Below, piece after piece: positions 9,540 through 64,000 of a DNA stretch of 64,000 nt. Both the position numbers and the translations under genes were made by a program. Source of the DNA: Alphaproteobacteria bacterium (GTDB lineage Bacteria > Pseudomonadota > Alphaproteobacteria > JAAXGF01); the NCBI GenBank assembly GCA_965218865.1, contig CBDCME010000073.1:289158-353157 (forward strand), in the 5' to 3' direction. Below the pieces are notes generated by a model. That model saw only the letters and a program-made list of their open reading frames with translations. It was not told the DNA's origin and did not search any database. The stretch's first letter is position 1. Each line of letters starts with the position of its first letter.

Positions 9540-10662
9540 TTAATGGCTTCGCGTCACCGGACGACGTATTGCGGTCCGGTGCCTTGCCCGCGCGGCGCGG
9601 ACCTCCTCCAGGCGTTCCCAAGCGATCCGATTGGCCATCGCGTTCGTCGCCATGGCTTGCTCGTCGGCACGGCCGAATAAATTCAGCAGTCGGTCGTGGA
9701 GCCGAGCCACGTGGGCCAGGGCGACGACTGAATCGAAGTGCGCGCCACGGTACGCGATTTCATAGGAAACGTAGATCAGGCCGCCGGCGTTGATTACGTA
9801 ATCCGGAGCATAAAGGATTCCCCGCGCCAGCAAGGCGCCGCCATGGTGGGTTTCGGCCAGTTGATTATTGGCCGACCCGGCGACGATCGTTGCCTTGAGG
9901 CGCGGAACCGTGTCGTCGTTCAGGACAGCGCCCAAGGCGCAAGGCGCCAGGACGTCCGCCTCGACGTCGTAGATTTCTTCCGCCGCGACGGCCGTGGCGC
10001 CGTGGCGTTCTCGAACCGCGCGAACCGCGTCCGCGTCGATATCCGTAACGGTGAGCCGCGCCCCGTCCTTGGCGAGATGCTCGCACAGCTTGGCGCCGAC
10101 TTGGCCCAGTCCTTGTACCGCGATCACGATTCCGTCGAGTCTCTCGCGCCCGAGCCGGTTGCCTGATGGCGGCTCTGATGCCGTGATAGACCCCCCACGC
10201 CGTCGCCGGAGAAGGATCTCCGCCGCCCTCGCCGATACCCGCGACATGGGGCGTTTCCTGGCGGACGACATCCATGTCGGCGACACCCATGCCGACGTCC
10301 TCGGCGATGATGTAACGGCCCTGTAGGGAATCGACGAATCTGCCGAAGCGCCGGAGCAGGGCCTCGCTCTTGTCGCTTCGGGAATCACCGATAACGACCG
10401 ATTTGCCGCCACCAAGGTGGAGCCCCGCCATCGCGGCCTTGTAGGTCATACCGCGCGACAGCCTCAGAACATCGTCCAGGGCCTCCTCGTCGCTCCCATA
10501 CGGCCACATGCGGCAACCACCGAGCGCCGGCCCCAGGGTCGTATCGTGAATCGCGACGATGGCTTTCAGCCCGACCCGGGCATCGTGAAAAAACACGGCC
10601 TCGTCGTGGTGCGCGAAGCTCTTGGCGTAATAGACGACCATGGCGGGATACGGGGTAATCAC
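9540..10662 (-). pseudogene. Glu/Leu/Phe/Val dehydrogenase (leucine-dehydrogenase-like), single frameshift near 10155-10165
   Basis: The N-terminal half (frame of 9865..10662) carries the catalytic GGGK motif ([11 protein letters not shown]). The C-terminal Rossmann half ([13 protein letters not shown] ... PDYVINAGG) lies in the frame of 9540..10415. The junction falls after [11 protein letters not shown]. Confidence 0.7.
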
Positions 10663-10686
10663 GGCGGATGCGCACCGCCCCGCGGA

Positions 10687-13170: not shown

Positions 13171-13178
13171 CCCGCGGA

Positions 13179-15662: not shown

Positions 15663-15784
15663 CCCGCGGAGTGGTCGGCATTCGCAACGGCCGTCGAAAT
15701 TGCGCGCGCCAGCATGGCCAATACTTGCCGAGAATCGAAAAAGGGACGCGGCCCGTGTCCCCCTTAGTTTCCGATCACGGACGT

Positions 15785-46884: not shown

Positions 46885-47212
46885 CCCCAACTTGGGAGTT
46901 CTTGTCACGCAGACGATTTGATTGGATAAAAAAGAGGCCGCTCGGAGAGACCCAGACCTCGGCGTAAATCGAATAAAGGAACCCCAGAGCGACCGCCGCT
47001 TGCCGTAACTTGTCGAAACCACTTCTACGGCTAGTGGCGGCGCGTGTCAACGGTAGAACGCCGTTGAACGGTCCCTCCCCGTCGCTCTTTTTCCCAACAT
47101 GGCGTGATCTCCCTTACGGAGGGACCAATGACGCATTCCATGCGCCGCGGCCGCGCGAGCGACGCCAACCTCGCCGTGCTGAAGACAACCGAGCATTTCC
47201 AGGGACTGCCAT

Positions 47213-48565
47213 ATGGCTTTGGGCGGTTCGGTCTCCTGCGCTTGGTCAAGGACAACGGCAGGAACAAGAAGACTAAGGCTAGGCGCGAGCGCGATAGCTC
47301 ACTACGAATTCCTTCTCCGATGGACCAGGGACAGGGACTGGACGGAACCGTGCGAACGGCCCGTCGTCTTCCTGCCGGTCGGCAAGACGGCCGAACTACG
47401 GGGCTTGACCGAAGGCCGGGTCCGGCAACTCGAATACGAACTCAACGAGGCCGGGCTGCTCACCTGGACCGACAGGGGCGACTACCGCAGGGGCGGAAAG
47501 CGGGATGCCGATGGGCTCATCCTCTTCGCCCACGGCGTGGACCTCTCTCCTGGGGTTGCAATGTTTCCCGAGTTGTTGAAGACCGACGCCAGGCGGCGGA
47601 AGGAAATTGAGGAACGAACCAAACTGCGGACGCACATAACAAAGCTCAAGGGCTCCGTCAGGCCCCTGCTCGACCGCGCCATCGAGGACGGACTGATAGA
47701 ACCCGGTAAGGCCGAATGGCGGAACACCACCGGAATGCTTTCCACCCGGACGGACGGCAACACGCCGCCGAAGCGGCTTAAAGAGACCGCCGCAAAATTG
47801 GACCGGCTGAGGGCAAGGCTGAGCGGGCGCGTCGAGGCAAACGCCCACTCCATAAAAGCCCTGGGCGGCGGTTGTGGAAAAGCCCGGAAAGCCTGTGGGC
47901 GGACGCGAAAAACTATCGGCGCGTCGATAGAAAACTATCGACCCACAAATACTACAAGGAATCAACAAACCGATAAATCGGTTACTAGTACCCCGTGCTG
48001 TGGACAAAGTACCGCCTGGGGCGGAAATACGGACGCGCCTTCCGGCGCGAAGTCATCCATTGAAACGATCGACGGCAGGGAAAAAGGGGGTCGCGGCCTG
48101 GAGGCCAGGAAAGAGCCTCCGAAGGGAGATCACGACGCCAACGCCGAAAGAGGGCGGGTATGGCGCCAGGCGGGAACGGTCGTGGACGGCCTGGCCGGAA
48201 ACCCGCGGGCGAAAGGCGGCGGGACAGCCAATGGTCCGGACTCGTCTCCCGGCCGCCCTCCAAAGGGCCAATTGTGGAAGCCGGACACGGGAACCCGGCA
48301 CATCAGCCTGCTTAATGCCGTGGAAATCGCCGGGATGCGGCTCCGAAACCGCATCCCGCGAACCGAACAGACGGATTGGGATGCCATCGAGGACGCCGCG
48401 GAAGACCTGTGCCCCGAACTCGGCATCAGCCTGCGGGCGTGGTGGATGGCCGTGACCATTATGGGGCGCAGGGCGGCCGCGGTCTGCGTCATGATCATCG
48501 ACCGGAAAATGTGCCCGATGCGGAAGACCCGGTGCGCTGTCCCGGCGCCTACCTGCGCGGCATGA
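47213..48565 (+). CDS. repC: RepC-like replication initiator protein
   Basis: N-terminal region VVFLPVGKTAELRGLTEGRVRQLEYELNEAGLLTWTDRGDYRRGGKRD and C-terminal LRAWWMAVTIMGRRAAAVCVMIIDRK resemble RepC N- and C-terminal domains (memory). A possible N-terminal extension lies in another frame (47128..), suggesting a frameshift. Confidence 0.5.
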   Translation: MALGGSVSCAWSRTTAGTRRLRLGASAIAHYEFLLRWTRDRDWTEPCERPVVFLPVGKTAELRGLTEGRVRQLEYELNEAGLLTWTDRGDYRRGGKRDADGLILFAHGVDLSPGVAMFPELLKTDARRRKEIEERTKLRTHITKLKGSVRPLLDRAIEDGLIEPGKAEWRNTTGMLSTRTDGNTPPKRLKETAAKLDRLRARLSGRVEANAHSIKALGGGCGKARKACGRTRKTIGASIENYRPTNTTRNQQTDKSVTSTPCCGQSTAWGGNTDAPSGAKSSIETIDGREKGGRGLEARKEPPKGDHDANAERGRVWRQAGTVVDGLAGNPRAKGGGTANGPDSSPGRPPKGQLWKPDTGTRHISLLNAVEIAGMRLRNRIPRTEQTDWDAIEDAAEDLCPELGISLRAWWMAVTIMGRRAAAVCVMIIDRKMCPMRKTRCAVPAPTCAA

Positions 48566-48694
48566 CGGCCCGCGCCCGGGACGACGAGCTTCACCTTCAC
48601 GCCAGCGTGTTCGGATGGGCGCGGAGAGCAGCAGCCTAACGCTTGCCGATGCCAAGCAGGAGACGGCAACGGCAGGGGTGCACAGGAATGAAGG

Positions 48695-50212
48695 TTATCG
48701 TTTCTCGGCCTTCCGGGCGGGCGGGGCGGTGATCTCGGGATAGACCGCGGTCATCACCCGCCACAAATCCGGCCATCCCCCGGGCTTGAGGCGGATACGG
48801 ACCGTGGACCCGTACATCCTGTCCGCTATGGGCGTCAGCGTTATTTTCTCGACCACCAGGCGCAGGGCATCCCTCAGGTATCCCGCCCGCGCCTGTTCGA
48901 GCAGATCCAGCTTCATCCGGTCAAGGGCGCGCCCGAGGGCGAGCCGAACCTCCCTTTCCGACGCCGGAAGCCCGGGAACGGTCTTTATCGCATTCTTCGC
49001 CGCCGTCAATCCCTTCTCTAGCTCCGCCATCCGCTGAAAGACACGTTCGGTCAGCAGTCCCCTTTCGGCCACCTTCAGGAGTTTCTCGATGCCACGGTTC
49101 TTCTCGGCGATCTCCTTCTCCAACGCGGCACGCCGCTCCCGGGCCCCCTCGACGAGAGCGTTCACGCCGGCGAAAAGACCGCGCTGCCGGGACAGGGATT
49201 TCCGCAGGGCCGGGAACAGCGCCCGCACCAGCTCCGGCACCCGCTTGCCGCGCGTGTTGTTGCACGTCCTGGTATAGCGCGCGTCGGCGCAGACGTACTG
49301 CCCCAGATTGGCCAGATGCGCCATGCCGCCGCAGCGCCCGCAACGAACCAGGCCGGTCAAAGGCTGGACGTTGTGGGGATTCCACTCGTGCCAGGCGCGT
49401 TTCTTCGATGCCGGACGCGGCTCCGCCTTCGGCTTGGACTCCCCGCCTGCTTGCGGCCCCCGCTGGCTCAACATGGTCCGCGCGCGATTCCACAGCCTCT
49501 CATTCACGATCCGCAGATGGGGAACCGGCGTGCGGATCCATTCCGATTCAGGATTGATCTTTGGCCGAGACCTTTTCGTCACCGGGTCGGTCACCCGCCG
49601 CGTGCGGTTGTAGACAAGGACGCCCTTGTAAATCTCGTTGCGCAGGGTGCCATCGCCGTTGGACCCCTTCCCATAGATGCTGGCGAACCGCCAAACCGCC
49701 CCGGAAGGCGAGGGGAGGCCGTCGGCGTTCAAGTCCCTGGCTATCGTCTTAATGGGCTTTCCGGCAACGAACTCCTTGAAAATCCGCCGCACCACCACCG
49801 CCTGGGCCTCGTCGATCTCCCGCAGGCCGTTAACGTTCCGGTTCTTCCCGTCGACCACCCCGCGTATCACCCGGTATCCGTAGGCGCGGCCCGAGGCGCG
49901 GCCCGAGGGCTGGCGCCCTTCCTCCGCGCGGGCGCGCTGGCCGCGCCTGATTTTGTCTTTCATGTCGTCAAGATAAATTGCGTTCATCGTCCCCTTGAAG
50001 CCGACGTGAAGCCAGGTGATCCTTCCTTCGTGGGCGGTGTGCATGCCCACCTCATAATACACCAGCCGGGCGTAGATCGCGGCGACGTCCTCCAGACTCC
50101 GGGTAACCCGGTCCAGCCCCTCGGCGACGACGACATCGAACTCCTTCCGTTCCGCGGCCTCCAGCAGCGCCTTCAGACCCTGGCGCCTGTCGGTCGCGCC
50201 GGTGAGTTCATG
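48695..50212 (-). pseudogene. large serine recombinase, C-terminal part (gene split by tandem IS66-like insertion)
   Basis: Recombinase domain, zinc ribbon (CGRCGG ... C) and coiled coil. Reading upstream to the IS junction gives the catalytic-domain sequence ELTGATDRRQGLKALLEAAERKEFDVVVAEGLDRVTRSLEDVAAIYARL. Confidence 0.7.
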
Positions 50213-50272
50213 GGTAATTGTTCGTTCAGGCCGTGGAATCAGCGCGGGCGTTTCTATCCGCCCCGGCGGATT

Positions 50273-51154
50273 TTAGCGATTGAGGCTGCGTTTCCAGTCT
50301 CGTCGCAGGGGCCGGAGCCAGACATCCTTTTTCGGCTTGTCAAACTGCCTGTCCCGGTCGTAGCGCCCGCGCCCCTGGGTGGCGCCGACATGGATCCAGC
50401 CCGATGCCCTGTAGACCGCGCCGGTATATCGCGGGGTCTCGACGAATGTCTCGATGAGCACGGGCGTGGTGTTGTAGCGCTCGGTCCAGTCGTCGGGCAG
50501 GCGCCGGCGGATGATGGCGAGGATGTGCGAGCCCAGGTTGGGGATCTTGATCCAGGGCAGGATCAGGAACCTCGGGTTGTCGACCACGAAGGGAAGGTTC
50601 TTCTCGCGCAGTTGCCGTGTCCATCCGATGAAGGTGTCGCGCGTGGCAAGCTTCCACGCGGCGGTGGAGAAGCCGAGCATGGCGAGTGGCCAGCCGTTTC
50701 GGTCATGGACGGCATAGCGCATCTGGGCGCCGACCAGGGTCTTGTATCCGAGATAGTGGTAGCGGGCGACGAACTCGTTCCAGAGCTTCCCTTCCCGGGT
50801 GCCGCGCACGACGGGGTGCAGGTCGAGCGGACGGACCTCGTCGAGGGTCGTCGGGGCCGGGAACAGCGGCGGTTCGGTGTCCGGCCCGAAGACGATCGGC
50901 CCGGGCCGGTTCTGCCGTCCCCGCGGCGCCGGCAGGGCGATCAGGCCGTCCCTGTGCATGGCCAGCATAGCGACCCTGGCCATCATGTCCTTGAGGCCGC
51001 CGTCGGGCTTGAACCAGCCGATGCGCCGGCAGAACTCCTTCGACAGCATATGGCGGTTCAACGGCGGCGGCCCGGCGATCAGCGCGCGCAGCAGCGCCAT
51101 TTCCCCGGCGGTGAAATCGCGGCCGTAATAACGGCACTCGATCTTGCCGGTCAT
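50273..51154 (-). CDS. standalone DUF4338 (DruA-like) protein, translationally coupled to tnpC
   Basis: Start MTGKIECRYYG overlaps the tnpC stop as ATGA. Motifs FIGW, DNPRFLILPW, ETFVE, YRASGW. Confidence 0.7.
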   Translation of the reverse strand: MTGKIECRYYGRDFTAGEMALLRALIAGPPPLNRHMLSKEFCRRIGWFKPDGGLKDMMARVAMLAMHRDGLIALPAPRGRQNRPGPIVFGPDTEPPLFPAPTTLDEVRPLDLHPVVRGTREGKLWNEFVARYHYLGYKTLVGAQMRYAVHDRNGWPLAMLGFSTAAWKLATRDTFIGWTRQLREKNLPFVVDNPRFLILPWIKIPNLGSHILAIIRRRLPDDWTERYNTTPVLIETFVETPRYTGAVYRASGWIHVGATQGRGRYDRDRQFDKPKKDVWLRPLRRDWKRSLNR

Positions 51155-53820
51155 CCCGGCGCCATGAGCTCGCGCCTGCGGTCCTCGCTCATCGACCATG
51201 GCAGCCACGGCGACATGTCATCCGGCGGTTTGCGGCCGTTCTTCGCGCAGGCTTCGAGCCACGCTTCCAGCCAGCGCAGGACGTCGATGCCGTTCATCGA
51301 GAGCGTGCCCACCACCGAGTACATGATCGCCGTGAACCTGGCGCCGTCCTCGCTGTTCGAACCGAAGCTTAATCGTCGTCCGATGACTGGCCCCCGGAGC
51401 GCGCGCTCGGCCTTGTTGTTGTCCATCGGAACCTGTGGCTTGTCGACGAAGACGCACAACCCCTCGCGGTGGTTGAGAAGCGAGCGCAGCGGCTTGGCCC
51501 TGCGCGCCCTCTCCGACAGGCCGGCCAACTCCGCTTCGGCGTCCGCGAACAGGCGGGCGACCGCCGCTTCCAACTCGCCCTGCGCCGCGTCGAACGCCGG
51601 TGTCCGGCGTTCGAGACCGGGGTCGTAATGCTCCAGCCGCGCCTCGTTCAGCCGGTAGATCTCCGCGATCCGCTCGATCCATCCCTGGCACCAGCCCGTC
51701 AGTCTCACCTGGCCGGCCGCGCACTCGATAAAATCGCGGCGCATATGGGACCAGCAGAATGCAAGGGTCACCTTGCCCTCGCGAAGGCGAGCGAGTCGCT
51801 TGTAGGCGCTATAGCGGTCGCAGACGATGACCGTGTCGAGGAGGCCTTCGGCGAACAGCTCGAGCGCCGCCTCGGCGCTGCGCGAGGGGTCGATATGGAA
51901 AGAGACCGCGTCATTGCTGACCGAGGTCCACAGCCAGGCCCGGCTCGACCGGTCTTCCCCGCGAAGCTCCTGGACGCGCCAACCGGTCTCGTCGGCGTGG
52001 CGCAGCGCCGCCTTGTTCTGGTGCGCGAGGATCGCCTTGGCGACCGGCTCGAACAGCGGCACGAAACGCTTCAGGCTGTCGGCCAGCGTCCCCGGTGAGA
52101 CCCCCAGGCCCTGGCTGGAGAACCACGCGGCAACCCGGTGCAGGGGGCGCAAGCAGGCACAGTGCTCGAACAGGAAGCGTGCCCAGAAGCTGGTCCCGTA
52201 GAGCGTCCTGGGGAACAGCCGCAGCACCGGGGGCGACGACACTTCCATGGGCGACGACGCGCACTCGCAGGTCCGGCGCCAGCGCGGACGGCGGATCACA
52301 CGCTTGTGGGCCTTGACCTCGATCTCGACGAGGGTGGATTCCTCGGCGCCGTTCGGCGCATAGGGCTGCCCGCACCGTCCGCAGACGCACGCATCCGGCG
52401 GCGGGTTGTGCTCTTCGGTGCGCTCCTTGAGCCCGGGCCGCTGGGTGCGGCCATGGCCGGGCGCGCCGCGCTGCTGGCCGCGCTTGCGTTCCGAGCCCGG
52501 CTTGTCCTGCTGTTCGCTCTTGCGGCCGTAGAGCGCCCTCGACAGCACAGCTCCGGTCGCGCGAAGCCTCTCAAGCTGGACTTCCAGCGTCTCGATCCGG
52601 TTCCGCGACGTCTTCGCGCCCTTGCGCAGCCGGGCGTTCTCCCGGGACAGCGACTTGATCGTGGCCTTCTGGCGCCGCGACCTTCGCAGAGCCCTGCGGA
52701 GATCGGCGTCTGCAACGGACAGCGACTTCGACAACGTCTTCCTGACCGCTCGAAGCCCGGCAAGCTCGGACTCGAGTGCCTTCCTGATCGCGCGAAGCTT
52801 GGCAGGCTGAACCTCCAGCGCCGCTTTCCGGGTCTCCAACTTCCGCATGGTCCTGCGCAGACGGGCGTTGTCCTTGCGCAGCGCCTCGATCGTCGTCTTC
52901 TGGCGCCGCGCTCGCCGCAACGCCGCGCGCAATTGAGCGGCCTCGTCGGACGGCAGCTTCGACAGCGTCGCCCCGGCCGCCCGGAGCTTGACGAGCCGGG
53001 CCTTCAACTTCTCCTGCCCGGCCTTGAACACCTCCAGGGCATGGCGCAGCCAGAAGACCTCGTCGGACAGCGATCGGGCCCGGGCCTCGCTGTCGCCCAG
53101 TATCCTCACCTCCCGATGGAGCCGAAGGGACTCGCTGGACAGCTTCCTGGCGGCCTCCCTGATGCTCTCCGTGCTCTCCTTCTCCCGGTCGAGGCGCTTG
53201 TTCAACTGGAGGATCTGCTTGTCCCGCCGGACCGCCTCGTTGTTGAGCCGGGTGATCTCCTTGCGTAGCGTCCTGATGGTGTCCTTCTGGTCCGGGGATC
53301 GCTCCAGGGCGGTGAGCCGCCGACGGGTCTCCGCGGGCCGCGGGCCGATCGCGCCCTCTCGGGCCTCCGGCGCGACCAGGGCCTTGCGCAGCCGGGCGTT
53401 CTCCTTGCGCAGCGCCTCGGTCGTGCTGCTCTCGTTCGACCCGATGCCGGCTTCGGAGAGGAGCGTCTCCAGGCGCGCCACTTCGGCCTGCAAGGAAGGC
53501 ACGTCCCTTGCCGCGCGGCGAGCTTCCTTCGTCTCCTCGACGGCCTCGCTCAACCTGCGCCGGCAGGCCTTGAACCGCGACTTCCACGAGCCGGCATCGC
53601 TACGCGAGGCCACTTCCGCCCAGCGTAGCTCTTCCGCGCGCGCTTCGGCCGCGTCCGCGCGGGCGCGCTCCCGCTCATACAGCGAGCGCAAGTCGCGCGG
53701 CGCGCGCTCCGGTAAGGACACCGGGCACGACCGGACCCCGCCATTACCCTCGACCAGCGTCAGGTCGGTGCCAAAATCCTCGTCCAGAACCGCCATGCGC
53801 TCGACGATAGCGCACGGCAA
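51151..53820 (-). CDS. tnpC: IS66-family transposase TnpC with extended N-terminal coiled coil
   Basis: 889 aa. Zinc-finger CxxC (ACVCGRCGQP) and the IS66 DDE core (HADETGWRV ... CDRYSAYK ... CWSHMRRDF). The N-terminal ~450 aa form a coiled coil with repeated (T/A)I(K/E)xLxxENARLR motifs. Confidence 0.8.
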   Translation of the reverse strand: MPCAIVERMAVLDEDFGTDLTLVEGNGGVRSCPVSLPERAPRDLRSLYERERARADAAEARAEELRWAEVASRSDAGSWKSRFKACRRRLSEAVEETKEARRAARDVPSLQAEVARLETLLSEAGIGSNESSTTEALRKENARLRKALVAPEAREGAIGPRPAETRRRLTALERSPDQKDTIRTLRKEITRLNNEAVRRDKQILQLNKRLDREKESTESIREAARKLSSESLRLHREVRILGDSEARARSLSDEVFWLRHALEVFKAGQEKLKARLVKLRAAGATLSKLPSDEAAQLRAALRRARRQKTTIEALRKDNARLRRTMRKLETRKAALEVQPAKLRAIRKALESELAGLRAVRKTLSKSLSVADADLRRALRRSRRQKATIKSLSRENARLRKGAKTSRNRIETLEVQLERLRATGAVLSRALYGRKSEQQDKPGSERKRGQQRGAPGHGRTQRPGLKERTEEHNPPPDACVCGRCGQPYAPNGAEESTLVEIEVKAHKRVIRRPRWRRTCECASSPMEVSSPPVLRLFPRTLYGTSFWARFLFEHCACLRPLHRVAAWFSSQGLGVSPGTLADSLKRFVPLFEPVAKAILAHQNKAALRHADETGWRVQELRGEDRSSRAWLWTSVSNDAVSFHIDPSRSAEAALELFAEGLLDTVIVCDRYSAYKRLARLREGKVTLAFCWSHMRRDFIECAAGQVRLTGWCQGWIERIAEIYRLNEARLEHYDPGLERRTPAFDAAQGELEAAVARLFADAEAELAGLSERARRAKPLRSLLNHREGLCVFVDKPQVPMDNNKAERALRGPVIGRRLSFGSNSEDGARFTAIMYSVVGTLSMNGIDVLRWLEAWLEACAKNGRKPPDDMSPWLPWSMSEDRRRELMAPG

Positions 53821-53984
53821 ATTCCGTTACCAGCAGAAAGACAGCACCTCGTGGGCTTCGCCTCAACTTGGGAAATGCGCTTGACGGCACCCATTCCACG
53901 GCCTGAACGAACACTTACCGCGCGTGTAATTGTTCGTTCAGGCCGTGGAATCAGCGCGGGCGTTTCTATCCGCCCCGGCGGATT

Positions 53985-54866
53985 TTAGCGATTGAGGCTG
54001 CGTTTCCAGTCTCGTCGCAGGGGCCGGAGCCAGACATCCTTTTTCGGCTTGTCAAACTGCCTGTCCCGGTCGTAGCGCCCGCGCCCCTGGGTGGCGCCGA
54101 CATGGATCCAGCCCGATGCCCTGTAGACCGCGCCGGTATATCGCGGGGTCTCGACGAATGTCTCGATGAGCACGGGCGTGGTGTTGTAGCGCTCGGTCCA
54201 GTCGTCGGGCAGGCGCCGGCGGATGATGGCGAGGATGTGCGAGCCCAGGTTGGGGATCTTGATCCAGGGCAGGATCAGGAACCTCGGGTTGTCGACCACG
54301 AAGGGAAGGTTCTTCTCGCGCAGTTGCCGTGTCCATCCGATGAAGGTGTCGCGCGTGGCAAGCTTCCACGCGGCGGTGGAGAAGCCGAGCATGGCGAGTG
54401 GCCAGCCGTTTCGGTCATGGACGGCATAGCGCATCTGGGCGCCGACCAGGGTCTTGTATCCGAGATAGTGGTAGCGGGCGACGAACTCGTTCCAGAGCTT
54501 CCCTTCCCGGGTGCCGCGCACGACGGGGTGCAGGTCGAGCGGACGGACCTCGTCGAGGGTCGTCGGGGCCGGGAACAGCGGCGGTTCGGTGTCCGGCCCG
54601 AAGACGATCGGCCCGGGCCGGTTCTGCCGTCCCCGCGGCGCCGGCAGGGCGATCAGGCCGTCCCTGTGCATGGCCAGCATAGCGACCCTGGCCATCATGT
54701 CCTTGAGGCCGCCGTCGGGCTTGAACCAGCCGATGCGCCGGCAGAACTCCTTCGACAGCATATGGCGGTTCAACGGCGGCGGCCCGGCGATCAGCGCGCG
54801 CAGCAGCGCCATTTCCCCGGCGGTGAAATCGCGGCCGTAATAACGGCACTCGATCTTGCCGGTCAT
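53985..54866 (-). CDS. standalone DUF4338 (DruA-like) protein (copy 2)
   Basis: Identical to the 50273..51154 product. Confidence 0.7.
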   Translation of the reverse strand: MTGKIECRYYGRDFTAGEMALLRALIAGPPPLNRHMLSKEFCRRIGWFKPDGGLKDMMARVAMLAMHRDGLIALPAPRGRQNRPGPIVFGPDTEPPLFPAPTTLDEVRPLDLHPVVRGTREGKLWNEFVARYHYLGYKTLVGAQMRYAVHDRNGWPLAMLGFSTAAWKLATRDTFIGWTRQLREKNLPFVVDNPRFLILPWIKIPNLGSHILAIIRRRLPDDWTERYNTTPVLIETFVETPRYTGAVYRASGWIHVGATQGRGRYDRDRQFDKPKKDVWLRPLRRDWKRSLNR

Positions 54867-57532
54867 CCCGGCGCCATGAGCTCGCGCCTGCGGTCCTCGC
54901 TCATCGACCATGGCAGCCACGGCGACATGTCATCCGGCGGTTTGCGGCCGTTCTTCGCGCAGGCTTCGAGCCACGCTTCCAGCCAGCGCAGGACGTCGAT
55001 GCCGTTCATCGAGAGCGTGCCCACCACCGAGTACATGATCGCCGTGAACCTGGCGCCGTCCTCGCTGTTCGAACCGAAGCTTAATCGTCGTCCGATGACT
55101 GGCCCCCGGAGCGCGCGCTCGGCCTTGTTGTTGTCCATCGGAACCTGTGGCTTGTCGACGAAGACGCACAACCCCTCGCGGTGGTTGAGAAGCGAGCGCA
55201 GCGGCTTGGCCCTGCGCGCCCTCTCCGACAGGCCGGCCAACTCCGCTTCGGCGTCCGCGAACAGGCGGGCGACCGCCGCTTCCAACTCGCCCTGCGCCGC
55301 GTCGAACGCCGGTGTCCGGCGTTCGAGACCGGGGTCGTAATGCTCCAGCCGCGCCTCGTTCAGCCGGTAGATCTCCGCGATCCGCTCGATCCATCCCTGG
55401 CACCAGCCCGTCAGTCTCACCTGGCCGGCCGCGCACTCGATAAAATCGCGGCGCATATGGGACCAGCAGAATGCAAGGGTCACCTTGCCCTCGCGAAGGC
55501 GAGCGAGTCGCTTGTAGGCGCTATAGCGGTCGCAGACGATGACCGTGTCGAGGAGGCCTTCGGCGAACAGCTCGAGCGCCGCCTCGGCGCTGCGCGAGGG
55601 GTCGATATGGAAAGAGACCGCGTCATTGCTGACCGAGGTCCACAGCCAGGCCCGGCTCGACCGGTCTTCCCCGCGAAGCTCCTGGACGCGCCAACCGGTC
55701 TCGTCGGCGTGGCGCAGCGCCGCCTTGTTCTGGTGCGCGAGGATCGCCTTGGCGACCGGCTCGAACAGCGGCACGAAACGCTTCAGGCTGTCGGCCAGCG
55801 TCCCCGGTGAGACCCCCAGGCCCTGGCTGGAGAACCACGCGGCAACCCGGTGCAGGGGGCGCAAGCAGGCACAGTGCTCGAACAGGAAGCGTGCCCAGAA
55901 GCTGGTCCCGTAGAGCGTCCTGGGGAACAGCCGCAGCACCGGGGGCGACGACACTTCCATGGGCGACGACGCGCACTCGCAGGTCCGGCGCCAGCGCGGA
56001 CGGCGGATCACACGCTTGTGGGCCTTGACCTCGATCTCGACGAGGGTGGATTCCTCGGCGCCGTTCGGCGCATAGGGCTGCCCGCACCGTCCGCAGACGC
56101 ACGCATCCGGCGGCGGGTTGTGCTCTTCGGTGCGCTCCTTGAGCCCGGGCCGCTGGGTGCGGCCATGGCCGGGCGCGCCGCGCTGCTGGCCGCGCTTGCG
56201 TTCCGAGCCCGGCTTGTCCTGCTGTTCGCTCTTGCGGCCGTAGAGCGCCCTCGACAGCACAGCTCCGGTCGCGCGAAGCCTCTCAAGCTGGACTTCCAGC
56301 GTCTCGATCCGGTTCCGCGACGTCTTCGCGCCCTTGCGCAGCCGGGCGTTCTCCCGGGACAGCGACTTGATCGTGGCCTTCTGGCGCCGCGACCTTCGCA
56401 GAGCCCTGCGGAGATCGGCGTCTGCAACGGACAGCGACTTCGACAACGTCTTCCTGACCGCTCGAAGCCCGGCAAGCTCGGACTCGAGTGCCTTCCTGAT
56501 CGCGCGAAGCTTGGCAGGCTGAACCTCCAGCGCCGCTTTCCGGGTCTCCAACTTCCGCATGGTCCTGCGCAGACGGGCGTTGTCCTTGCGCAGCGCCTCG
56601 ATCGTCGTCTTCTGGCGCCGCGCTCGCCGCAACGCCGCGCGCAATTGAGCGGCCTCGTCGGACGGCAGCTTCGACAGCGTCGCCCCGGCCGCCCGGAGCT
56701 TGACGAGCCGGGCCTTCAACTTCTCCTGCCCGGCCTTGAACACCTCCAGGGCATGGCGCAGCCAGAAGACCTCGTCGGACAGCGATCGGGCCCGGGCCTC
56801 GCTGTCGCCCAGTATCCTCACCTCCCGATGGAGCCGAAGGGACTCGCTGGACAGCTTCCTGGCGGCCTCCCTGATGCTCTCCGTGCTCTCCTTCTCCCGG
56901 TCGAGGCGCTTGTTCAACTGGAGGATCTGCTTGTCCCGCCGGACCGCCTCGTTGTTGAGCCGGGTGATCTCCTTGCGTAGCGTCCTGATGGTGTCCTTCT
57001 GGTCCGGGGATCGCTCCAGGGCGGTGAGCCGCCGACGGGTCTCCGCGGGCCGCGGGCCGATCGCGCCCTCTCGGGCCTCCGGCGCGACCAGGGCCTTGCG
57101 CAGCCGGGCGTTCTCCTTGCGCAGCGCCTCGGTCGTGCTGCTCTCGTTCGACCCGATGCCGGCTTCGGAGAGGAGCGTCTCCAGGCGCGCCACTTCGGCC
57201 TGCAAGGAAGGCACGTCCCTTGCCGCGCGGCGAGCTTCCTTCGTCTCCTCGACGGCCTCGCTCAACCTGCGCCGGCAGGCCTTGAACCGCGACTTCCACG
57301 AGCCGGCATCGCTACGCGAGGCCACTTCCGCCCAGCGTAGCTCTTCCGCGCGCGCTTCGGCCGCGTCCGCGCGGGCGCGCTCCCGCTCATACAGCGAGCG
57401 CAAGTCGCGCGGCGCGCGCTCCGGTAAGGACACCGGGCACGACCGGACCCCGCCATTACCCTCGACCAGCGTCAGGTCGGTGCCAAAATCCTCGTCCAGA
57501 ACCGCCATGCGCTCGACGATAGCGCACGGCAA
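54863..57532 (-). CDS. tnpC: IS66-family transposase TnpC (copy 2)
   Basis: Identical to the 51151..53820 product. Confidence 0.8.
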   Translation of the reverse strand: MPCAIVERMAVLDEDFGTDLTLVEGNGGVRSCPVSLPERAPRDLRSLYERERARADAAEARAEELRWAEVASRSDAGSWKSRFKACRRRLSEAVEETKEARRAARDVPSLQAEVARLETLLSEAGIGSNESSTTEALRKENARLRKALVAPEAREGAIGPRPAETRRRLTALERSPDQKDTIRTLRKEITRLNNEAVRRDKQILQLNKRLDREKESTESIREAARKLSSESLRLHREVRILGDSEARARSLSDEVFWLRHALEVFKAGQEKLKARLVKLRAAGATLSKLPSDEAAQLRAALRRARRQKTTIEALRKDNARLRRTMRKLETRKAALEVQPAKLRAIRKALESELAGLRAVRKTLSKSLSVADADLRRALRRSRRQKATIKSLSRENARLRKGAKTSRNRIETLEVQLERLRATGAVLSRALYGRKSEQQDKPGSERKRGQQRGAPGHGRTQRPGLKERTEEHNPPPDACVCGRCGQPYAPNGAEESTLVEIEVKAHKRVIRRPRWRRTCECASSPMEVSSPPVLRLFPRTLYGTSFWARFLFEHCACLRPLHRVAAWFSSQGLGVSPGTLADSLKRFVPLFEPVAKAILAHQNKAALRHADETGWRVQELRGEDRSSRAWLWTSVSNDAVSFHIDPSRSAEAALELFAEGLLDTVIVCDRYSAYKRLARLREGKVTLAFCWSHMRRDFIECAAGQVRLTGWCQGWIERIAEIYRLNEARLEHYDPGLERRTPAFDAAQGELEAAVARLFADAEAELAGLSERARRAKPLRSLLNHREGLCVFVDKPQVPMDNNKAERALRGPVIGRRLSFGSNSEDGARFTAIMYSVVGTLSMNGIDVLRWLEAWLEACAKNGRKPPDDMSPWLPWSMSEDRRRELMAPG

Positions 57533-57630
57533 ATTCCGTTACCAGCAGAAAGACAGCACCTCGTGGGCTTCGCCTCAACTTGGGAAATGCGCTTGACGGC
57601 ACCCATTCCACGGCCTGAACGAACACTTAC

Positions 57631-57787
57631 GTTCATGGTCCGAAAACACAGCCGCTTCGCCGCCAGGGACACAGAACTCCCGCTCGATCAGCCTTCGGCA
57701 CAGCGCGACCTGATCGGCGACGCTCAGCGGATTCTGAATTTTCGACGAATAGCGGGCGTAGATTGCCGCTTTCGGCTTCGCTTTCAT
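57631..57787 (-). pseudogene. large serine recombinase, N-terminal fragment (catalytic Ser region)
   Basis: MKAKPKAAIYARYSSKIQNPLSVADQVALCRRLIEREFCVPGGEAAVFSDHE, then the IS66 TIR. It continues in frame with the 48695..50212 fragment across the insertion. Confidence 0.7.
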
Positions 57788-57959
57788 CGTCTTCCTTGCA
57801 TCGCGCACGGAGACGGAAACCTAGCGGTTTGCCGGTGAAAGTCAAAACGCCCGCAGAGGGGTCCATCAGGATCGGCGCGGACGGCGCAACGCATTGATAT
57901 ATCGTTGAAATTCTATTTCGACCCGGAGCGTTCATCGACGCGCGAAGCCGTAGGGATTC

Positions 57960-58255
57960 CAATGCGCGCAACGAAAAACATGGAAAAACATGATTATCGG
58001 AAAGCGAAACATGAAAAAACATGATTTGCCCGTAACATATTGATTTATCGCCTTGAATCCCAAACCATGCCGAACATTTCCGCAATTTGCTGAACGTTAC
58101 GACCAGTTTCACAAACCTTTCGTGTCCATGCAACCCATTGATATAACATCATATTTTCCTTAAATTTCCTACAATTTCCCTAAATTTATCTGATTTCCTT
58201 AAATTTCCTGCCGTTTGATGGCAGGTTATGCAATGTGGGCCCACACATTGCCCAC
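57960..58255. repeat. AT-rich iteron-like region (4x AAACATGA, 3x TCCTTAAATTTCCT-like, two short palindromes)
   Basis: GC drops far below window average. Direct repeats at 57974-58024 and 58155-58208. Palindromes CCTGCC-N7-GGCAGG and GCAATGTG-N6-CACATTGC. Confidence 0.45.
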
Positions 58256-58429
58256 GGCCTTTGTCCGCGGATGCTTATTTCGCGCCTCCGGCGCTCAACG
58301 CTGTAAAAGGGAGTTTTGATTTGCGGCGGCTGTTTTAGCAGCCGGCAAGGCGGCGCGGATTCGCTGGAAAGATTGCCCCAAAACATGGGCCGGGCTCGGC
58401 GGCCGGCGGCTTCGGGGAGCGATTCCCCC

Positions 58430-61134
58430 TCAGCGCCCGAGGCCGCTTTCGGCGGCACGCGACGGCGCCAGGCGGGACAGCCCGGCCAGTTGCCGCCTGA
58501 TCTCCGGGCGCCGGGCCGCCTCGCGCCACATCTCGCCGAAGGTTGTTTTGCCTTCTTTCGCCGGAGGTGGAACGATCACCTTGCCGTTCACCGCCTTGGC
58601 GGCTTCCCTAGCGTCGGACCGCCCCCTCGCCGCCGCGGCGTTATCGGTGGCGACAACGATTCCGGCCTTCGGATGTTTGAGGCGCCACGCCTCGGCGACC
58701 GCCTTGAGGTTGTCCGCACCGAAGGCGCAAAGCGTCCGCCGGCCCGTGGCCTCGTGGATGGCGGCGGCGGACGCCAGGTCCTTGGCGATAACGGCGTCGC
58801 CCTTGCCGCCGGGTTTCTCCTTGCCGATCCCGAACATCAGGCCCTCGGGGCTTCCGGAGGCCCAGGCGCTCGGCGGTCTCGCCATTATCGTCCAGGGCGC
58901 ACAAGCCCCAGACGCGCCCGCTTGCATCGGTCAACGGAACCAGGACATGCTTGTCCCGGCGCAGGTTCTCCACGGGAAGGCCGGGCGGCAGCCCTTGCGG
59001 CGTACCGTCCTTGCCGAGGGGCTCGGCGTTTCGCCAGCGCAGCCACACGGCGTCCCCCGGCGGGACGGGCCAGCACATCGCGGATTTTGTCGGGATCGCC
59101 CGCCCTTTCCGCGAACGACGCGGCGCCTTCGGGAACGGCGAGGGTGGCGCGCGTTTCCCCGGCCGATTCCTTCAGGGATCCGGCCCGTTCCTTGTCCGCC
59201 GCGATGACCAGCTTGCCGTCCGGATAGCGTTCCCGCAGCGCCCGCGCGAGGTCTCCCATCTTGTCCGCCTCTTCCGCCACCGCCCACGGGCAGCCTCGTG
59301 GCCTTGTGGATCGCCGCGCCCGAGAGATAGTCGCCGGCGACGACGATCGCGTCCTTGCCGGCCCGCCGCCCCGGATCGATCACGTGCATCAGCGCCCAGA
59401 CCCACGCCGCCGTCCTGGCCTGAACCCTGCCGGCGCGGCGCGTCCCGCCGTCCCTGGCGATGAACTTGACATCATGGAGCCGGCCGTGGACGTCCTTGAG
59501 CGGCATGGCCACGCCGCCGTCCGGCGCCAGCTTGAGGCCGAATCCTCGGACCCGGTTCTCCATCAGCCAGGGCGTGTTGCCGGGGGTGGTCCCACGGCGC
59601 GCCCTTGAGTTCCGTCCACGCCATTTGCGCCTTGTCGCCCACCAGAGGCGCGAGCCTTGCCCGCAAATCCGCGGGCTTCACCGTCCCGGTCCGATCGTCG
59701 TTCCATTCCTTCACTTCCAGGGCCTCGACGCCGACCGCCCTGGCCCGCTCGGCGAAAGCCGCCGCCCCGGCGGCCGCGATCTTACAATCCGCATGTTTGG
59801 CGCGCAGGCAGGCGGCCGCGGCCTTGAGGTCTCCGCCCTTAGGCACCAACGCCACAGGCGCGTGCGCGGCGTTGCGAACGGCGGCGGCGGCGGCGATATT
59901 ATCGGTTAGCACCACGGCCGGGGGCTTCCCGCCCGCTTCGATTCTCCGCTCCGGGTCGATGACGTGCAGCAATCCCTTCTTGCCGAGGTTTCCGATCTCC
60001 GTCGTCTTTCCGTCCGGCTTGAGAACCTGCAAGCCCCCATACGTGGCCGTCCTTGCCGCGGAACGGAACCATCAGGTTGCCGCTTCCGTCCTCCCTCAAT
60101 CCCAGACTCCGCGCCCCGCCCTTTTCCTTGACCCACGGCCCGGCCGTTCCATCCGCCCACTTGCCCGCGTCGATCCAGTGCCTCAGTGCCGGACGCAGGG
60201 TCCGGGGCAGCCGGTCCCGGCCACCATCGCCGAAGGCCCGGAACATCTTCTTGTAGGTCATGATGACGACCAGGGCCAAGGGATCGCGGTAGGCCTCGTT
60301 GATGAGAAACTGCTTCCAGTCCGCCGCTATTCTCCCGGCCAGCGTTTTCGGACGCCTTCTCCGTCCAGTGAAGGTCCGCCACAGGCGCGAAGCCCCGGGG
60401 TGCCGGGTCAGGGGCTTTGCGCTGTAGCGCCGGCGCGGCTTGGACGCGCTCGCCTTGTCCATGGATTCGTAAGGGCCCAAGCGCTCTTTCAGCTTGCTGA
60501 ACGTGAGGTCCGGGCCCGCGAGGCTCGCCTTGACCACCTCCGGGCCGTCCCGCCGTTTCAACGCCAGGCCGGCGCCGCGCCGTTTGATCTCGATATCGAA
60601 GGCGGCGAGCCCCTGGTGCAACTCGCGCCAGGTGCGCGCCTTCCCGGCGATCCCGAGAATCTCTTTCCTGTTGTCGAGAACGTGGTTCTGAAACGATTGG
60701 CGCCAGGTCCGCGCCTCGAAGTCCCGCGCCGCCGGGTGCGCAACGGCGCGGCCCTTGCCGTCCCGGTTGTCGTAGTCGGACCCGCCGAGATCGACGTGAA
60801 GCCCGTACTTTCTCTCCATCGCCCGGCACGTCCTCTCCAGCGCCTTGTAGTCGTTCCACGGCGTGTGGACCGTCAGCTTCCCGGGATGGACCCTGTTGAT
60901 GGCCACGTGCATGTGAAAGTTGTCGGTGTTTTCGTGCGTCCCCGCCACCCGCTGGTGCTCGCCGAAGCCCAGGGCCTCGGCGATGGCCAGGTCCAGGTCC
61001 ACCTCGTCCCCGCCGGCGCAATTGACCGTCCACAGGTCCACCAGCTTCTCGCCCTTTTCCTTGGCCGCCGCGATGTATCCGGACAAGCACCCGAATTTTC
61101 CCTTCACCGTCCGGCCGATCTTCTTGGCGATCAT
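58430..61134 (-). pseudogene. traI: MOBP-family relaxase (RP4 TraI-like); N-terminal relaxase domain intact, C-terminal region broken over at least 4 frames
   Basis: N-terminal part 59899..61134 shows MIAK ... YI ... VNC ... GFGEHQRV ... HENTDNFHMHVAINRVHP (3-His motif). Downstream, repeated about 90-aa modules appear in the ORFs 59472..60032, 58931..59563, 58885..59280 and 58430..58927, each in a different frame. Confidence 0.7.
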
Positions 61135-61391
61135 CCGCGCCCGGAGATTTTCACGATGCAGGCCCCGATCAATTTTTGGGTCTCGCGGATTCCCTCGTAC
61201 AGCTTCCTCGTCTCTCCGATAAACGCGGACGAGACGCGGCTCGCGCCCAAGGCGTCCAGCACCGCCAGGAGGAGATTACCGAGCCGGGCCTGATCGGCGT
61301 TGACCTTCATCAAATCGCGCCGCGCCGACGCCTCGATCCGGCTCGCAGGGATTCCGCGGCCCACCACGAGGCGGCGGACGTATTCCGACAC
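61131..61391 (-). CDS. mobC: MobC-like relaxosome accessory protein
   Basis: 86 aa. Motif DLMKVNADQARLGNLLLAVLDAL resembles the MobC family. Stop/start overlap with the relaxase gene. Confidence 0.55.
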   Translation of the reverse strand: MSEYVRRLVVGRGIPASRIEASARRDLMKVNADQARLGNLLLAVLDALGASRVSSAFIGETRKLYEGIRETQKLIGACIVKISGRG

Positions 61392-61654
61392 GGGACAATC
61401 CCAAACGGGAGGCGGCGGCGCAAATCCCGGCCTTTTCCTCCGCGCTTACGTAAGCCTTCAAGAAAATCTGCTGGCGGCGCTTCTTCCTCGCCACCGCTAT
61501 CCGCTTTCCGGCTTGGCCCGGCTCGCCGGCTGGATGATTGAACCCGCCGGGCGCGGCCTCGTCCCCGGCGTCCACGGTTGCCGCTTCACCGCCGTCCATT
61601 CCATGTCTCATCTTTCCCTGCCTCCACCCCTTTTTCCTCTGCCGTGATCCCTAT

Positions 61655-61712
61655 GACGGCTTGCGACCGCAAGCCGTCACACCCTTGATTTTACCCCGTT
61701 TCCGGTATCCGG
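61655..61712. promoter_or_regulatory. candidate oriT (12-bp inverted repeat TGACGGCTTGCG..CGCAAGCCGTCA followed by nic-like GGTATCCGGCG)
   Basis: Strong inverted repeat about 270 bp upstream of mobC. The nearby TATCCGG is one mismatch from the MOBP nic core ATCCTG. Confidence 0.3.
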
Positions 61713-61850
61713 CGCCAGTTCCGGCACATGATCCGGACGGTGCGCCGGGAAGAGGGTGGAGTCGGGCCGGGAGGGTCCGATCACGGGAGGGTCGGAGAGG
61801 ACGTTCGTCCGCCCTTCCGGTGCCGAAACCCCTTCCTGGAGAATTGGACC

Positions 61851-62102
61851 ATGGCCCGCACCAACATCACGTCCGAGCACAAGCGCGCCTTCGAGGCGTT
61901 GACGAGCCGGGAACCCCATAACTTCGCCCTCTTCAGTTGCCGAGTCGATAACGAACCCGCCGCGGCGATCGTTGCCGTGACCGTCGATCCCCGCGCGCGA
62001 AAGGGCGGGGAACCCGAGTACCGGATCCGGCCGATGTTCGTCTCGGTCACCCCCGGAATGCGCCTGACCGATCATGACGGCCGGGAGGCTTGTGAGCGAT
62101 GA
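61851..62102 (+). CDS. hypothetical small protein (leading-region-like position)
   Basis: 84 aa starting MARTNITSEHKRAFEAL. In frame with the downstream PAPS-reductase-like gene, but separated from it by a TGA. Confidence 0.35.
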   Translation: MARTNITSEHKRAFEALTSREPHNFALFSCRVDNEPAAAIVAVTVDPRARKGGEPEYRIRPMFVSVTPGMRLTDHDGREACER

Positions 62103-62183
62103 AACGCGATTTCCCATTCCCGCGATTCCTCCATCATCCCGCCCCCGGAGTGCATCGAAGCATTCGCGCGGGGCGCCCTTTTC

Positions 62184-62958
62184 GTGGTCAATCACTCAGG
62201 CGGCAAGGATTCCCAGACGATGACGATCGCCCTCCGACGCCTCGTCCCGCCCGATCAATTGCTGATTGTCCACGCCCCGCTCGGCGACGTCGAGTGGCCG
62301 GGAACGGTCGAGCACATCGAGAACACCATTCCACCCGGCGTGCCCCTCGTCCTCGCCCCAACCGCTTCCGCCAAGACGCTGCTGGAACGCATCGAGGAAC
62401 GCGGACGATTCCCTGATAGCGCGCGCCGCTGGTGTACCTCGGATTTCAAACGCACACCCATCGAACGAGAGATCCGGCGCTATCTCAAGGGCCATCCGCG
62501 CTATTCCGGCCGCATCGTCAACTGCCTCGGCCTGCGGGCCGAGGAAAGCCCAACCCGGGCGCGCCGTCCCGCCTGGAGTTTCAACGCCCGCAACAGCAAG
62601 GCCGGGCGCGAGTGGCACGACTGGCTGCCGATCTTTCGCATGACCCGCGGCGAGGTGTTCAAAACCATCCGCCAAGCCGGGCAAAACCCCCCATTGGGCC
62701 TACGCGGCCGGCATGACGCGGCTGTCGTGCAGCTTTTGCATCCTGGCCTCTCGTTCCGATCTCGCTACGGCCGCCCGACTCAGGCCGGCGCTCTACCGGC
62801 GCTACGCCGCACTGGAACGCCGTATCGGCCACACCCTGTCGCCGGCGCGAAACCCCCTTCCTGAAATCACGGGGATTTCCACGCCGGATCCATTCCCCAG
62901 CCTGCCTCAAATCCGCCTTCCGGCCCCGGAGAGGGAGAGTCCGGTCTTCGAGGGGTGA
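62184..62958 (+). pseudogene. phosphoadenosine-phosphosulfate reductase family protein (PP-loop SGGKDS), frameshift in a C6 run near 62685
   Basis: N-terminal frame to ...IRQAGQNPP. The C-terminal frame (62713..62958) holds the conserved Cys motif HWAYAAGMTRLSCSFCIL. The two frames join if one C is removed from AAAACCCCCCATTGG. Confidence 0.6.
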
Positions 62959-63022
62959 GGGGCCGGCGTTGGAGCGAGAGGTTCCGCCCGGGCCGATAAC
63001 CCGCGAACGAGGAGCATGAGCG

Positions 63023-63377
63023 ATGAAACTTCTGACCGACGAGCAGCGCCAACGGATGATCGACAACGGCCGCGTCAACGCCGCCCACATCGCCCGCGAC
63101 GGCAACACCCAGGACTTCACCCCGGTAGTTAAGCTGTTCTGCCCCTGGGGGACGGGCACCTGGCTGTTGTCGGAACTGAATTCCGAAGACCGCGATGTTG
63201 GATTCGGACTCTGCGATTTGGGCCATCCGGAGCTTGGCAACGTAAGCCTATCCGAAACTGGCGGCGGTGCGCGGCCCGGGCGGCCTCGGCATCGAGCGCG
63301 ACCTTCATTTCAAGGCCAGGGCGACGCTTTCCGAATACGCCGCCGAGGCGCGCGAGAGCGGCTTCATCCGCGCCTGA
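63023..63377 (+). pseudogene. DUF2958 family protein, frameshift at GAAACTGG (63253-63260)
   Basis: MKLLTDEQRQRMIDNGR ... VVKLFCPWGTGTWLLSELNSEDRDVGFGLCDLGHPELGNVSLSE in frame 2. It continues as LAAVRGPGGLGIERDLHFKARATLSEYAAEARESGFIRA* in frame 0. Confidence 0.55.
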
Positions 63378-63443: not shown

Positions 63444-64000
63444 ATGTCCGAATCCGAGATTCGTTCCATTCCCCTGAGCCAATTGGAACTCTCCCCCGCC
63501 AACGTGCGCACGGCCCCGGCGGGCAAGGCGGCCGACGCCGAGCTGAAGGCCTCGATCGCCGCCCACGGGCTTCTGGAGAACCTGGTCGCCCGCTGTTTCG
63601 GCCCGGGTCCGGACGGTGTTGGCCGCTACGCCGTGATCGCCGGTGGCAGGCGCCTGGCCGCCTTGCGGGACCTCGCCCGCGACGGCGCGATCGGCGAGGA
63701 CTTCCCCGTGCCCTGCCGCATCACCGGCAACGCCGCCGAGGAGAAGGAGCTGTCCCTGGCCGAGAACACCGTGCGGGTGGCCATGCATCCGGCCGACCAG
63801 GTCCGAGCCTTCGCCGCCCTGGCCGACGCCGGTTCCGGAACCGCCGACATCGCCACGAGATTCGGCGTCTCCGAGCGCACCGTCGCGCAGCGCCTGCGCC
63901 TCGGCAACGCCGCGCCGGAGATTCTCGACGCCTACCGGGACGGCGGCATCGGCATGGACGTGCTGACGGCGTTTGCCCTGACCGCCGACAGGGAGCGCCA
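63444..64000 (+). CDS. ParB/Srx-like nuclease domain protein (partial, continues beyond window)
   Basis: MSESEIRSIPLSQLELSPANVRT ... YAVIAGGRRLAALRDL ... LAENTVRVAMHPADQVRAF are typical ParB N-terminal domain motifs. No stop codon before the window end. Confidence 0.65.
   Translation, partial: MSESEIRSIPLSQLELSPANVRTAPAGKAADAELKASIAAHGLLENLVARCFGPGPDGVGRYAVIAGGRRLAALRDLARDGAIGEDFPVPCRITGNAAEEKELSLAENTVRVAMHPADQVRAFAALADAGSGTADIATRFGVSERTVAQRLRLGNAAPEILDAYRDGGIGMDVLTAFALTADRER

Follow-up and report, generated by a model that had tools for sequence, protein, structure and literature searches.

A degenerate TraI/MobA(P)-family relaxase gene, in six frame segments and with a nuclease-domain deletion, in a decayed, putative mobilizable element of an alphaproteobacterium

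When a genome record shows a relaxase gene scattered over several reading frames, is the gene broken in the organism or only in the record? This question is raised by a stretch of 64,000 nucleotides (nt) of contig CBDCME010000073.1 (assembly GCA_965218865.1, positions 289,158 to 353,157), hereafter the window, in which positions are counted from the first letter. The locus under study comprises mobC and the relaxase gene of a decayed element, probably of the integrative mobilizable type, carried by the chromosome of an uncultured alphaproteobacterium whose relatives are Rhodospirillales. The relaxase gene (minus strand, 58430-61134) is a degenerate member of the known TraI/MobA(P) relaxase family and derives from one ancestral open reading frame (ORF) of 899-904 codons, which is distributed over six frame segments in this record.

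The gene begins with an ORF of 411 amino acids (aa) (61134-59899, minus strand) matching the Pfam families Relaxase (PF03432) and TraI_middle (PF22863). Three-frame translation revealed that protein-like sequence continues 3' of this ORF and ends at a stop codon at 58430-58432. Frames were called from coding-like stop-to-stop segments and Pfam coverage; a sliding plot of the GC content at the third codon position was too noisy. Removing one base at each of the five frame transitions yields an ORF of 899 aa, and 96 homologs of this repaired protein were found. Three of them (P0002, 944 aa; P0003, 936 aa; P0004, 934 aa) align with it from end to end, with 62-70% identity. The 90%-identity cluster of the best match has three members. 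The first, P0098, is exactly the 411-aa ORF of the window, deposited as a gene call on a contig of 628,157 nt; P0097 is an intact protein of 904 aa from another assembly; P0001 (782 aa) has as its tail the end of an ISAs1-family element, which the window carries twice, the relaxase of that genome being interrupted by this insertion sequence (IS). In representative-genome contigs, among which the source species is absent, a profile search found only two loci, with 44% identity, in a Rhodospirillales metagenome-assembled genome, and a megablast of the relaxase region against PLSDB gave no match. The initial annotation had recognised an RP4-TraI-like MOBP relaxase, descended from a single ORF whose repeated C-terminal region was broken by frameshifts. 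Both readings hold: the first is supported by the Pfam and NCBIfam matches, and both by frameshift-aware alignment to intact homologs. The protein combines a MobA/NES-like relaxase nuclease domain, a TraI-middle domain, a helical linker and three tandem primase-core-like copies, laid out as follows.

60799-61134, minus strand: remnant of the relaxase nuclease domain with motifs I and III (PF03432, aa 50-112)
60973-60987, minus strand: junction of an in-frame deletion of 129 nt, from alignment with intact homologs
60463-60729, minus strand: TraI-like middle domain (PF22863, aa 136-224, E 2.4e-14)
59592-60156, minus strand: primase-core-like module 1, found with hhalign and a module hidden Markov model (HMM), which matches aa 327-514 of P0097; frameshift 1 lies inside
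59059-59590, minus strand: primase-core-like module 2, found with hhalign and the HMM; frameshift 2 lies at its start and frameshift 3 inside
58433-59058, minus strand: primase-core-like module 3, matching Toprim_3; frameshift 4 lies at its start and frameshift 5 inside

Along the gene, the codon-start coordinate modulo 3 passes through 0, 2, 1, 0, 2 and 1, i.e. five changes and six segments. Frameshifts had thus been rightly noticed, but the earlier count of at least three, over four frames, was too low. Each change corresponds to an extra G on the coding strand, in the runs at 60034-60038, 59591-59593, 59283-59285, 59054-59058 and 58861-58863; in gene order, these runs have grown from 4 to 5, 2 to 3, 2 to 3, 4 to 5 and 2 to 3 bases. 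No motif common to the insertion sites (e.g. a methylation motif) was seen beyond the G run itself. The near-identical proteins P0097 and P0001 were compared with the window as protein sequences. A frameshift-aware dynamic-programming alignment of P0097 required exactly five one-base skips, the first at 60036. Outside these skips, identity is 100% over aa 1-827, followed by two substitutions and a C-terminal indel of 15 nt. P0097 therefore reads in a single frame through all five sites, and P0001 through the first four.

We then considered the nuclease domain, which had been described as catalytically intact. Motif I is present, as Y20 in FGCLSGYI (61075-61077) falls on a tyrosine, Y20, that is near-invariant among 59 homologs, and so is motif III (HENTDNFHMH, 60907-60936), where the change from D to N at the third position is also seen in the intact homolog P0002 (HKNTDHFHMH). 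These two parts of the earlier motif reading stand. The domain is nevertheless not intact: 43 aa that every intact homolog has in the alignment between DLDLAI and AEALGF are absent from the window, P0097 and P0001, and the motif II region has been lost with them. This region is presumably the counterpart of Ser74 in YHLLVSF of RP4 TraI. In the three-motif scheme of relaxases, the acidic residue responsible for activating the catalytic tyrosine belongs to motif II (PMC3394729). Among 59 family members, the lost segment holds one invariant residue, Y69, and four near-invariant ones (H70, S74, G78 and I89). In the AlphaFold2 (AF2) model of P0002, whose predicted local distance difference test (pLDDT) score is 84.4, it corresponds to the β-strand 68-74 and parts of the helices 46-59 and 83-96. 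The window relaxase lacks the motif II segment, i.e. the strand YHLxVSF and the acidic loop after it. With Foldseek, the N-terminal domain of this model matches the relaxase MobA of R1162 (2ns6; probability 1.00, target-normalised template modelling score 0.51) and NES (4ht4). The loss is also visible in profile searches, since the window matches only positions 69-132 of PF03432, against 2-132 for P0002, and since its ORF scores 223.3 bits with NF041893, below the cut-off of 250 (P0097, 219.7; P0002, 294.7).

In an intact locus found on another contig (L003), the 129 nt missing from the window are bracketed by two copies of TCGCCGAGGC. On the nucleotide sequence, such a pair is the signature of a microhomology-mediated deletion, which removed the motif II strand of the relaxase. 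An exact 32-mer across the junction had no match among the metagenome contigs scanned. We take this older deletion to be real, because three separate deposited gene products carry it. The relaxase is probably catalytically dead and predicted to be unable to nick, because the motif II strand is deleted. A relaxase lineage without this strand that at least one genome still maintains as an open frame is of modest interest for conjugation biology.

The C-terminal part had been divided into four modules of about 90 aa, each in a different frame. The reiterated part does lie in different frames on three-frame translation, but repeat analysis gives three modules of about 175-210 aa (pairwise hhalign probability 98.5-99.3%, E 1e-15 to 1e-20) instead of four, and the reported HVID/AAAI.KAT motif marks where the N-subdomain meets the Toprim part within each module. 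For Toprim_3 (PF13362, cut-off 27.2 bits), module 3 scores 30.3 bits (E 6e-7) and module 2 13.1 bits, while module 1 gives no match. When module 3 of P0002 was modelled with AF2 (pLDDT 89.6), the model matched the primase domain of T7 gp4 and the RNA-polymerase domain of DnaG (6n9x, 5w34, 1dd9; Foldseek E 1e-5 to 1e-4, probability 1.00), as does the full-length AF2 model of P0002. Sequence searches of the PDB with the module profile and with P0002 returned nothing meaningful, and no zinc-binding domain was detected in the modules. On these models, and with modules 1 and 2 homologous to module 3, each module has the fold of a primase core of the DnaG/T7-gp4 type, made of an N-subdomain and a Toprim part.

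The catalytic residues of this core are mostly lost in the family. The Toprim Glu is kept in 3 modules out of 44, the first Asp of DxD in 12 and the second in 2; in modules 1, 2 and 3 of the window, the Glu site reads TDN, GDY and KDL, and the DxD site AAG, ADK and TDN, respectively. Because these residues are lost, the modules attached to relaxases are predicted to be non-catalytic, and they are probably DNA- or partner-binding modules, as far as their residues indicate. With the module HMM, family members of about 580 aa were found to have a single module, those of about 790-860 aa two and those of about 900-1080 aa three; the three-module form is an established variant among the Thalassospira and Rhodospirillum relatives. 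One copy of the module also occurs at residues 1182-1359 of P0096, a TrwC-type (MOBF) relaxase-helicase of 1449 aa, where its Toprim Glu and DxD are canonical; the module thus passes from one relaxase family to another. In a reading to which we give little credence, relaxases carrying one to three catalytically degenerate DnaG cores would make up a functional class of their own, with former primase domains acting as DNA-escort or partner-binding modules. Such tandem DnaG-type cores without catalytic acids, one to three in number, are of modest interest for conjugation biology. As a side observation, module 2 (59380-59450) reads GRVQARTAAWVWALMHVIDP in the window lineage and GAEKETPPLVHVIDP in homologs, i.e. 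it is five residues shorter; this shortening is shared by P0097 and P0001 and may be an old compensated double frameshift.

Frame changes are not confined to the relaxase gene. Outside it, the following ones were identified in the window.

61392: one extra base in mobC, relative to the near-identical contig L006 and by tblastn of the L003 NikA protein
61754: one extra base in intergenic DNA, relative to L006
62113 and 62683: one extra base each in the gene for a protein resembling 3'-phosphoadenosine 5'-phosphosulfate (PAPS) reductase, relative to L006
63255-63257: an extra A in this run of the DUF2958 gene, from Pfam coverage and tblastn of the L003 protein
47256-47300 and 48514-48517: one extra base near the first and one missing base near the second, in repC, from three-frame translation and tblastn of the L003 protein
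45674-45675: insertion of GG in the second ISAs1 copy, with a frameshifted transposase
10159: one extra base (T) in an IS-disrupted Leu/Phe dehydrogenase gene, shared with the contig L004/L007

With the relaxase, the window has 12 one-base insertions, one two-base insertion and one deletion. Each insertion duplicates its neighbouring base, some of them in runs of just one or two bases, and none of the 14 indels lies outside dispensable DNA, here the mobile element, the IS-disrupted dehydrogenase gene and one IS copy. For comparison, we used independent sequence of the same organism: the Logan contigs L005, L006, L008 and L009 (run ERR13605531), which are 99.7-99.96% identical to the window, and the long-read ENA contig ctg800544_24x_l (L004/L007), at 24x. 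Between L006 and the window (61121-63052), there are two substitutions and four one-base insertions, every insertion being on the window side, and the extra base at 10159 is absent from the Logan contigs. The core part of L004/L007 differs from the window by 5 mismatches and no indel over 18.3 kb. This contig has a local consensus artefact in one IS copy (L004 5782-7113, L007 3493-5856), with 46 gap openings; long blocks identical to the IS of the window stand there between deletions of 1-13 nt.

From these data, we lean slightly towards long-read consensus errors in a strain-variable region as the origin of the extra bases in the relaxase gene, mobC, repC, the PAPS-reductase-like gene and the DUF2958 gene. 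The organism would then encode a single relaxase ORF of 899-904 aa. Indels outnumber substitutions, both in the relaxase compared with P0097 (5 indels for 2 amino-acid changes in about 890 codons) and in the comparison with L006 (4 for 2); the 13 insertions face a single deletion, and several events fall in very short runs. Bacterial indel spectra are substitution-rich and deletion-biased or balanced, and the observed one is far from this. In addition, two sister assemblies have a single-frame relaxase ORF and none of the relaxase insertions, and the artefact in the IS copy of L004/L007 shows a local consensus error of this kind in a related long-read contig. The same figures weigh on the possibility, to which we give somewhat less than an even chance, of a genuine pseudogene: the relaxase deletion and the IS in the recombinase would have inactivated the element and its genes would have drifted, accumulating real one-base insertions in this strain, whereas in sister strains the ORF would be either intact or interrupted by an IS. 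For such a drift, it is also unexpected that three of the five relaxase events affect GG runs even though 16 runs of at least four G or C are available, a distribution unlike length-dependent slippage.

Several observations nevertheless speak for real mutations and against consensus errors. Over about 25 kb, the core genes of the window are free of indels relative to three independent contigs, and indels restricted to dispensable DNA are exactly the pattern expected because selection filters real mutations; errors would need locally poor coverage there. The insertion at 10159 is common to the independent 24x contig, so that one such event, at the least, is probably real. The contig L003, which is at 7x, has the same naming scheme and may come from the same pipeline, has ten uninterrupted genes. 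The consensus is not generally noisy either, since the two copies within each tandem IS differ little or not at all. Real decay would also fit a C-to-T change that creates a TGA at 62956 (relative to L006), the IS-rich state of the genome (8 IS copies in 64 kb, as in lineages accumulating pseudogenes) and the deposition of the truncated 411-aa ORF as a gene call. If all thirteen insertions were real, a strongly insertion-biased mutational process might act locally on silenced or foreign DNA and spare the core genome, an idea to which we give little credence; any explanation other than error or real decay is improbable.

We also considered that the frame changes could be functional, with the expression of the modules controlled by programmed +1 frameshifting or by homopolymer tracts subject to phase variation. 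Five shifts in one direction, each at a G run, would suit this idea, but the runs are just 3-5 nt long and, apart from the G run, the sequence context differs among the five sites. Moreover, the same residues are encoded in a single frame in homologs with 62-70% identity and in the near-identical P0097, and extra bases of this sort are also seen outside genes (61754) and in neighbouring genes unrelated to the relaxase. This candidate is effectively refuted by the single-frame relatives and the short runs, and its chance is practically negligible. The main value of this case lies in annotation, as a gene that appears shattered in one record is a clean ORF of 904 aa in a sister assembly. Pseudogene or non-mobilisable calls made from long-read or metagenome contigs therefore need a check at the level of the reads.

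Then, we examined the element that carries the relaxase. Its order is repC, a large serine recombinase, a low-GC spacer, the relaxase, mobC, an ORF of 83 aa, the PAPS-reductase-like gene, the DUF2958 gene and ParB, with the following features around the relaxase.

47158-48618, plus strand: repC-like gene, covering only positions 52-172 of the Pfam RP-C profile; the 539-aa L003 protein aligns with it in three segments
48698-50209, minus strand: large serine recombinase, C-terminal 491 aa (Pfam Resolvase, Recombinase, Zn_ribbon_recom)
50214-57630, minus strand: IS66-family head-to-tail dimer of two identical copies of 3705 nt, splitting the recombinase (NF033517)
57638-57778, minus strand: large serine recombinase, N-terminal 47 aa, from tblastn of the L003 recombinase split at the IS
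61131-61611, minus strand: mobC, a NikA-like ribbon-helix-helix gene, with only the C-terminal half matching Pfam NikA-like
61654-61680, minus strand: candidate hairpin of an origin of transfer (oriT), with a 12-bp stem and a 4-nt loop (DNA fold, z = -3.1)
62099-62958, plus strand: PAPS-reductase-like gene (PF01507 profile positions 4-152 of 175)
63023-63374, plus strand: DUF2958 gene (Pfam profile positions 1-67 of 111)
From 63444: ParB, of which 63444-63998 lies in the window

Synteny with the intact locus L003 extends over the recombinase, relaxase, NikA, DUF2958 and ParB genes; no tRNA is present in the window and the right end of the element lies beyond it. As had been noted earlier, mobC overlaps the relaxase start, by 4 nt (ATGA, 61131-61134); it is itself frameshifted at 61392 by one extra G, and is intact at 159 aa in L006. 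The NikA and DUF2958 proteins of L003 each land in two frames of the window by tblastn, and the PAPS-reductase-like gene is uninterrupted in L006. The candidate oriT hairpin lies 43 nt upstream of mobC, and L003 shares part of the block just upstream; no nick consensus of the MOBP type was recognised. A search with the ParB N-terminus for further contigs spanning the element gave a best match of 76% identity.

Three side observations concern this region. The change at 62956, which turns the CGA of L006 into TGA and ends the PAPS-reductase-like ORF, could be either a nonsense mutation or the natural stop. The spacer between recombinase and relaxase (57750-58350) has 40-50% GC, against 67% for the genome, and contains 5.6 copies of a degenerate 10-nt repeat, TTTCCTTAAA (58155-58209). 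Finally, the homologs of the ParB N-terminus in ENA assemblies (P0103-P0222) range from 118 to 323 aa, and the syntenic L003 gene encodes 791 aa; such scattered lengths reflect either truncated genes in many assemblies or a heterogeneous family.

The IS66 dimer has a spacer of 7 nt (CGCGCGT) between its copies, and the whole dimer is flanked by a target duplication of 8 bp, GTTCATGG. The element encodes a transposase of 889 aa with a coiled-coil N-terminal extension of about 440 aa, and an ORF of 311 aa matching DruA (PF14236). The dimer splits the serine recombinase gene described above. Because motif II of the relaxase is deleted and the recombinase is split by this dimer, the element is probably immobile, whether or not the frameshifts are real. 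The earlier conclusion that it is no longer self-mobilisable is thus probably true, on other grounds than the frameshifts first put forward, which may not exist.

Other IS of the window lie outside these genes. At 10677-15671, in the 5' end of the Leu/Phe dehydrogenase gene, two IS4-family copies alternate with three target site duplications (CCCCGCGGAG), with a period of 2492 nt. This dimer is absent from the Logan contigs; its site is empty in L005 and occupied by one inverted copy in L004/L007, and the tandem arrangement could be an assembly duplication. The Leu/Phe/Val dehydrogenase gene itself (9540-10662) is intact, at 396 aa, in L005. The two ISAs1-family copies (38305-40385 and 44802-46884) encode a 598-aa transposase with an N-terminal DruA-like domain, and their element is the one that interrupts the relaxase in the genome of P0001. 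The first 34 kb of the window hold core genes (greA, purB, hflKC, mrp, yebC, ruvCAB, tolQRAB-pal, tilS, ftsH, folP and glmM), all with complete Pfam coverage.

Finally, we compared the relaxase with known systems. In sequence motifs, it resembles RP4 TraI, the MOBP prototype, by its MIAK start, the motif I Tyr at about residue 20, the motif III HxxTDNxHxH and the AIN box. RP4 TraI retains motif II (Ser74 in YHLLVSF) and is not known to have primase-like repeats, the RP4 primase TraC being encoded separately. The fusion of a relaxase to a primase-type domain is found in MobA of RSF1010/R1162, where that domain is RepB', a single-copy primase that is not known to be of the Toprim/DnaG type; the window gene instead has three DnaG-core-like copies without the conserved catalytic acids. 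With the RNA-polymerase domain of the DnaG and T7 gp4 primases, the modules of the window family share the N-subdomain and the Toprim fold (Foldseek), but they lack the conserved Glu and DxD as well as a detected zinc-binding domain, and are triplicated in tandem. A related system, grouped with Toprim_3, consists of the DUF5710 proteins found beside relaxases on Roseibium plasmids. The TraI/MobA(P) relaxases of Rhodospirillales (Thalassospira, Rhodospirillum; P0019, P0026, P0011), of about 900-1080 aa, are 34-41% identical to the window protein. Unlike them, the window copy is 43 aa short in the nuclease domain, stays under the NF041893 cut-off and has five frameshifts in its record. They share with it the layout of relaxase, TraI_middle and three modules, with a ribbon-helix-helix gene upstream; they are named TraI/MobA(P) by NCBI and “phage/plasmid primase-like” by JGI, and a member of this group is carried by a plasmid of Thalassospira marina (NZ_CP024200.1).

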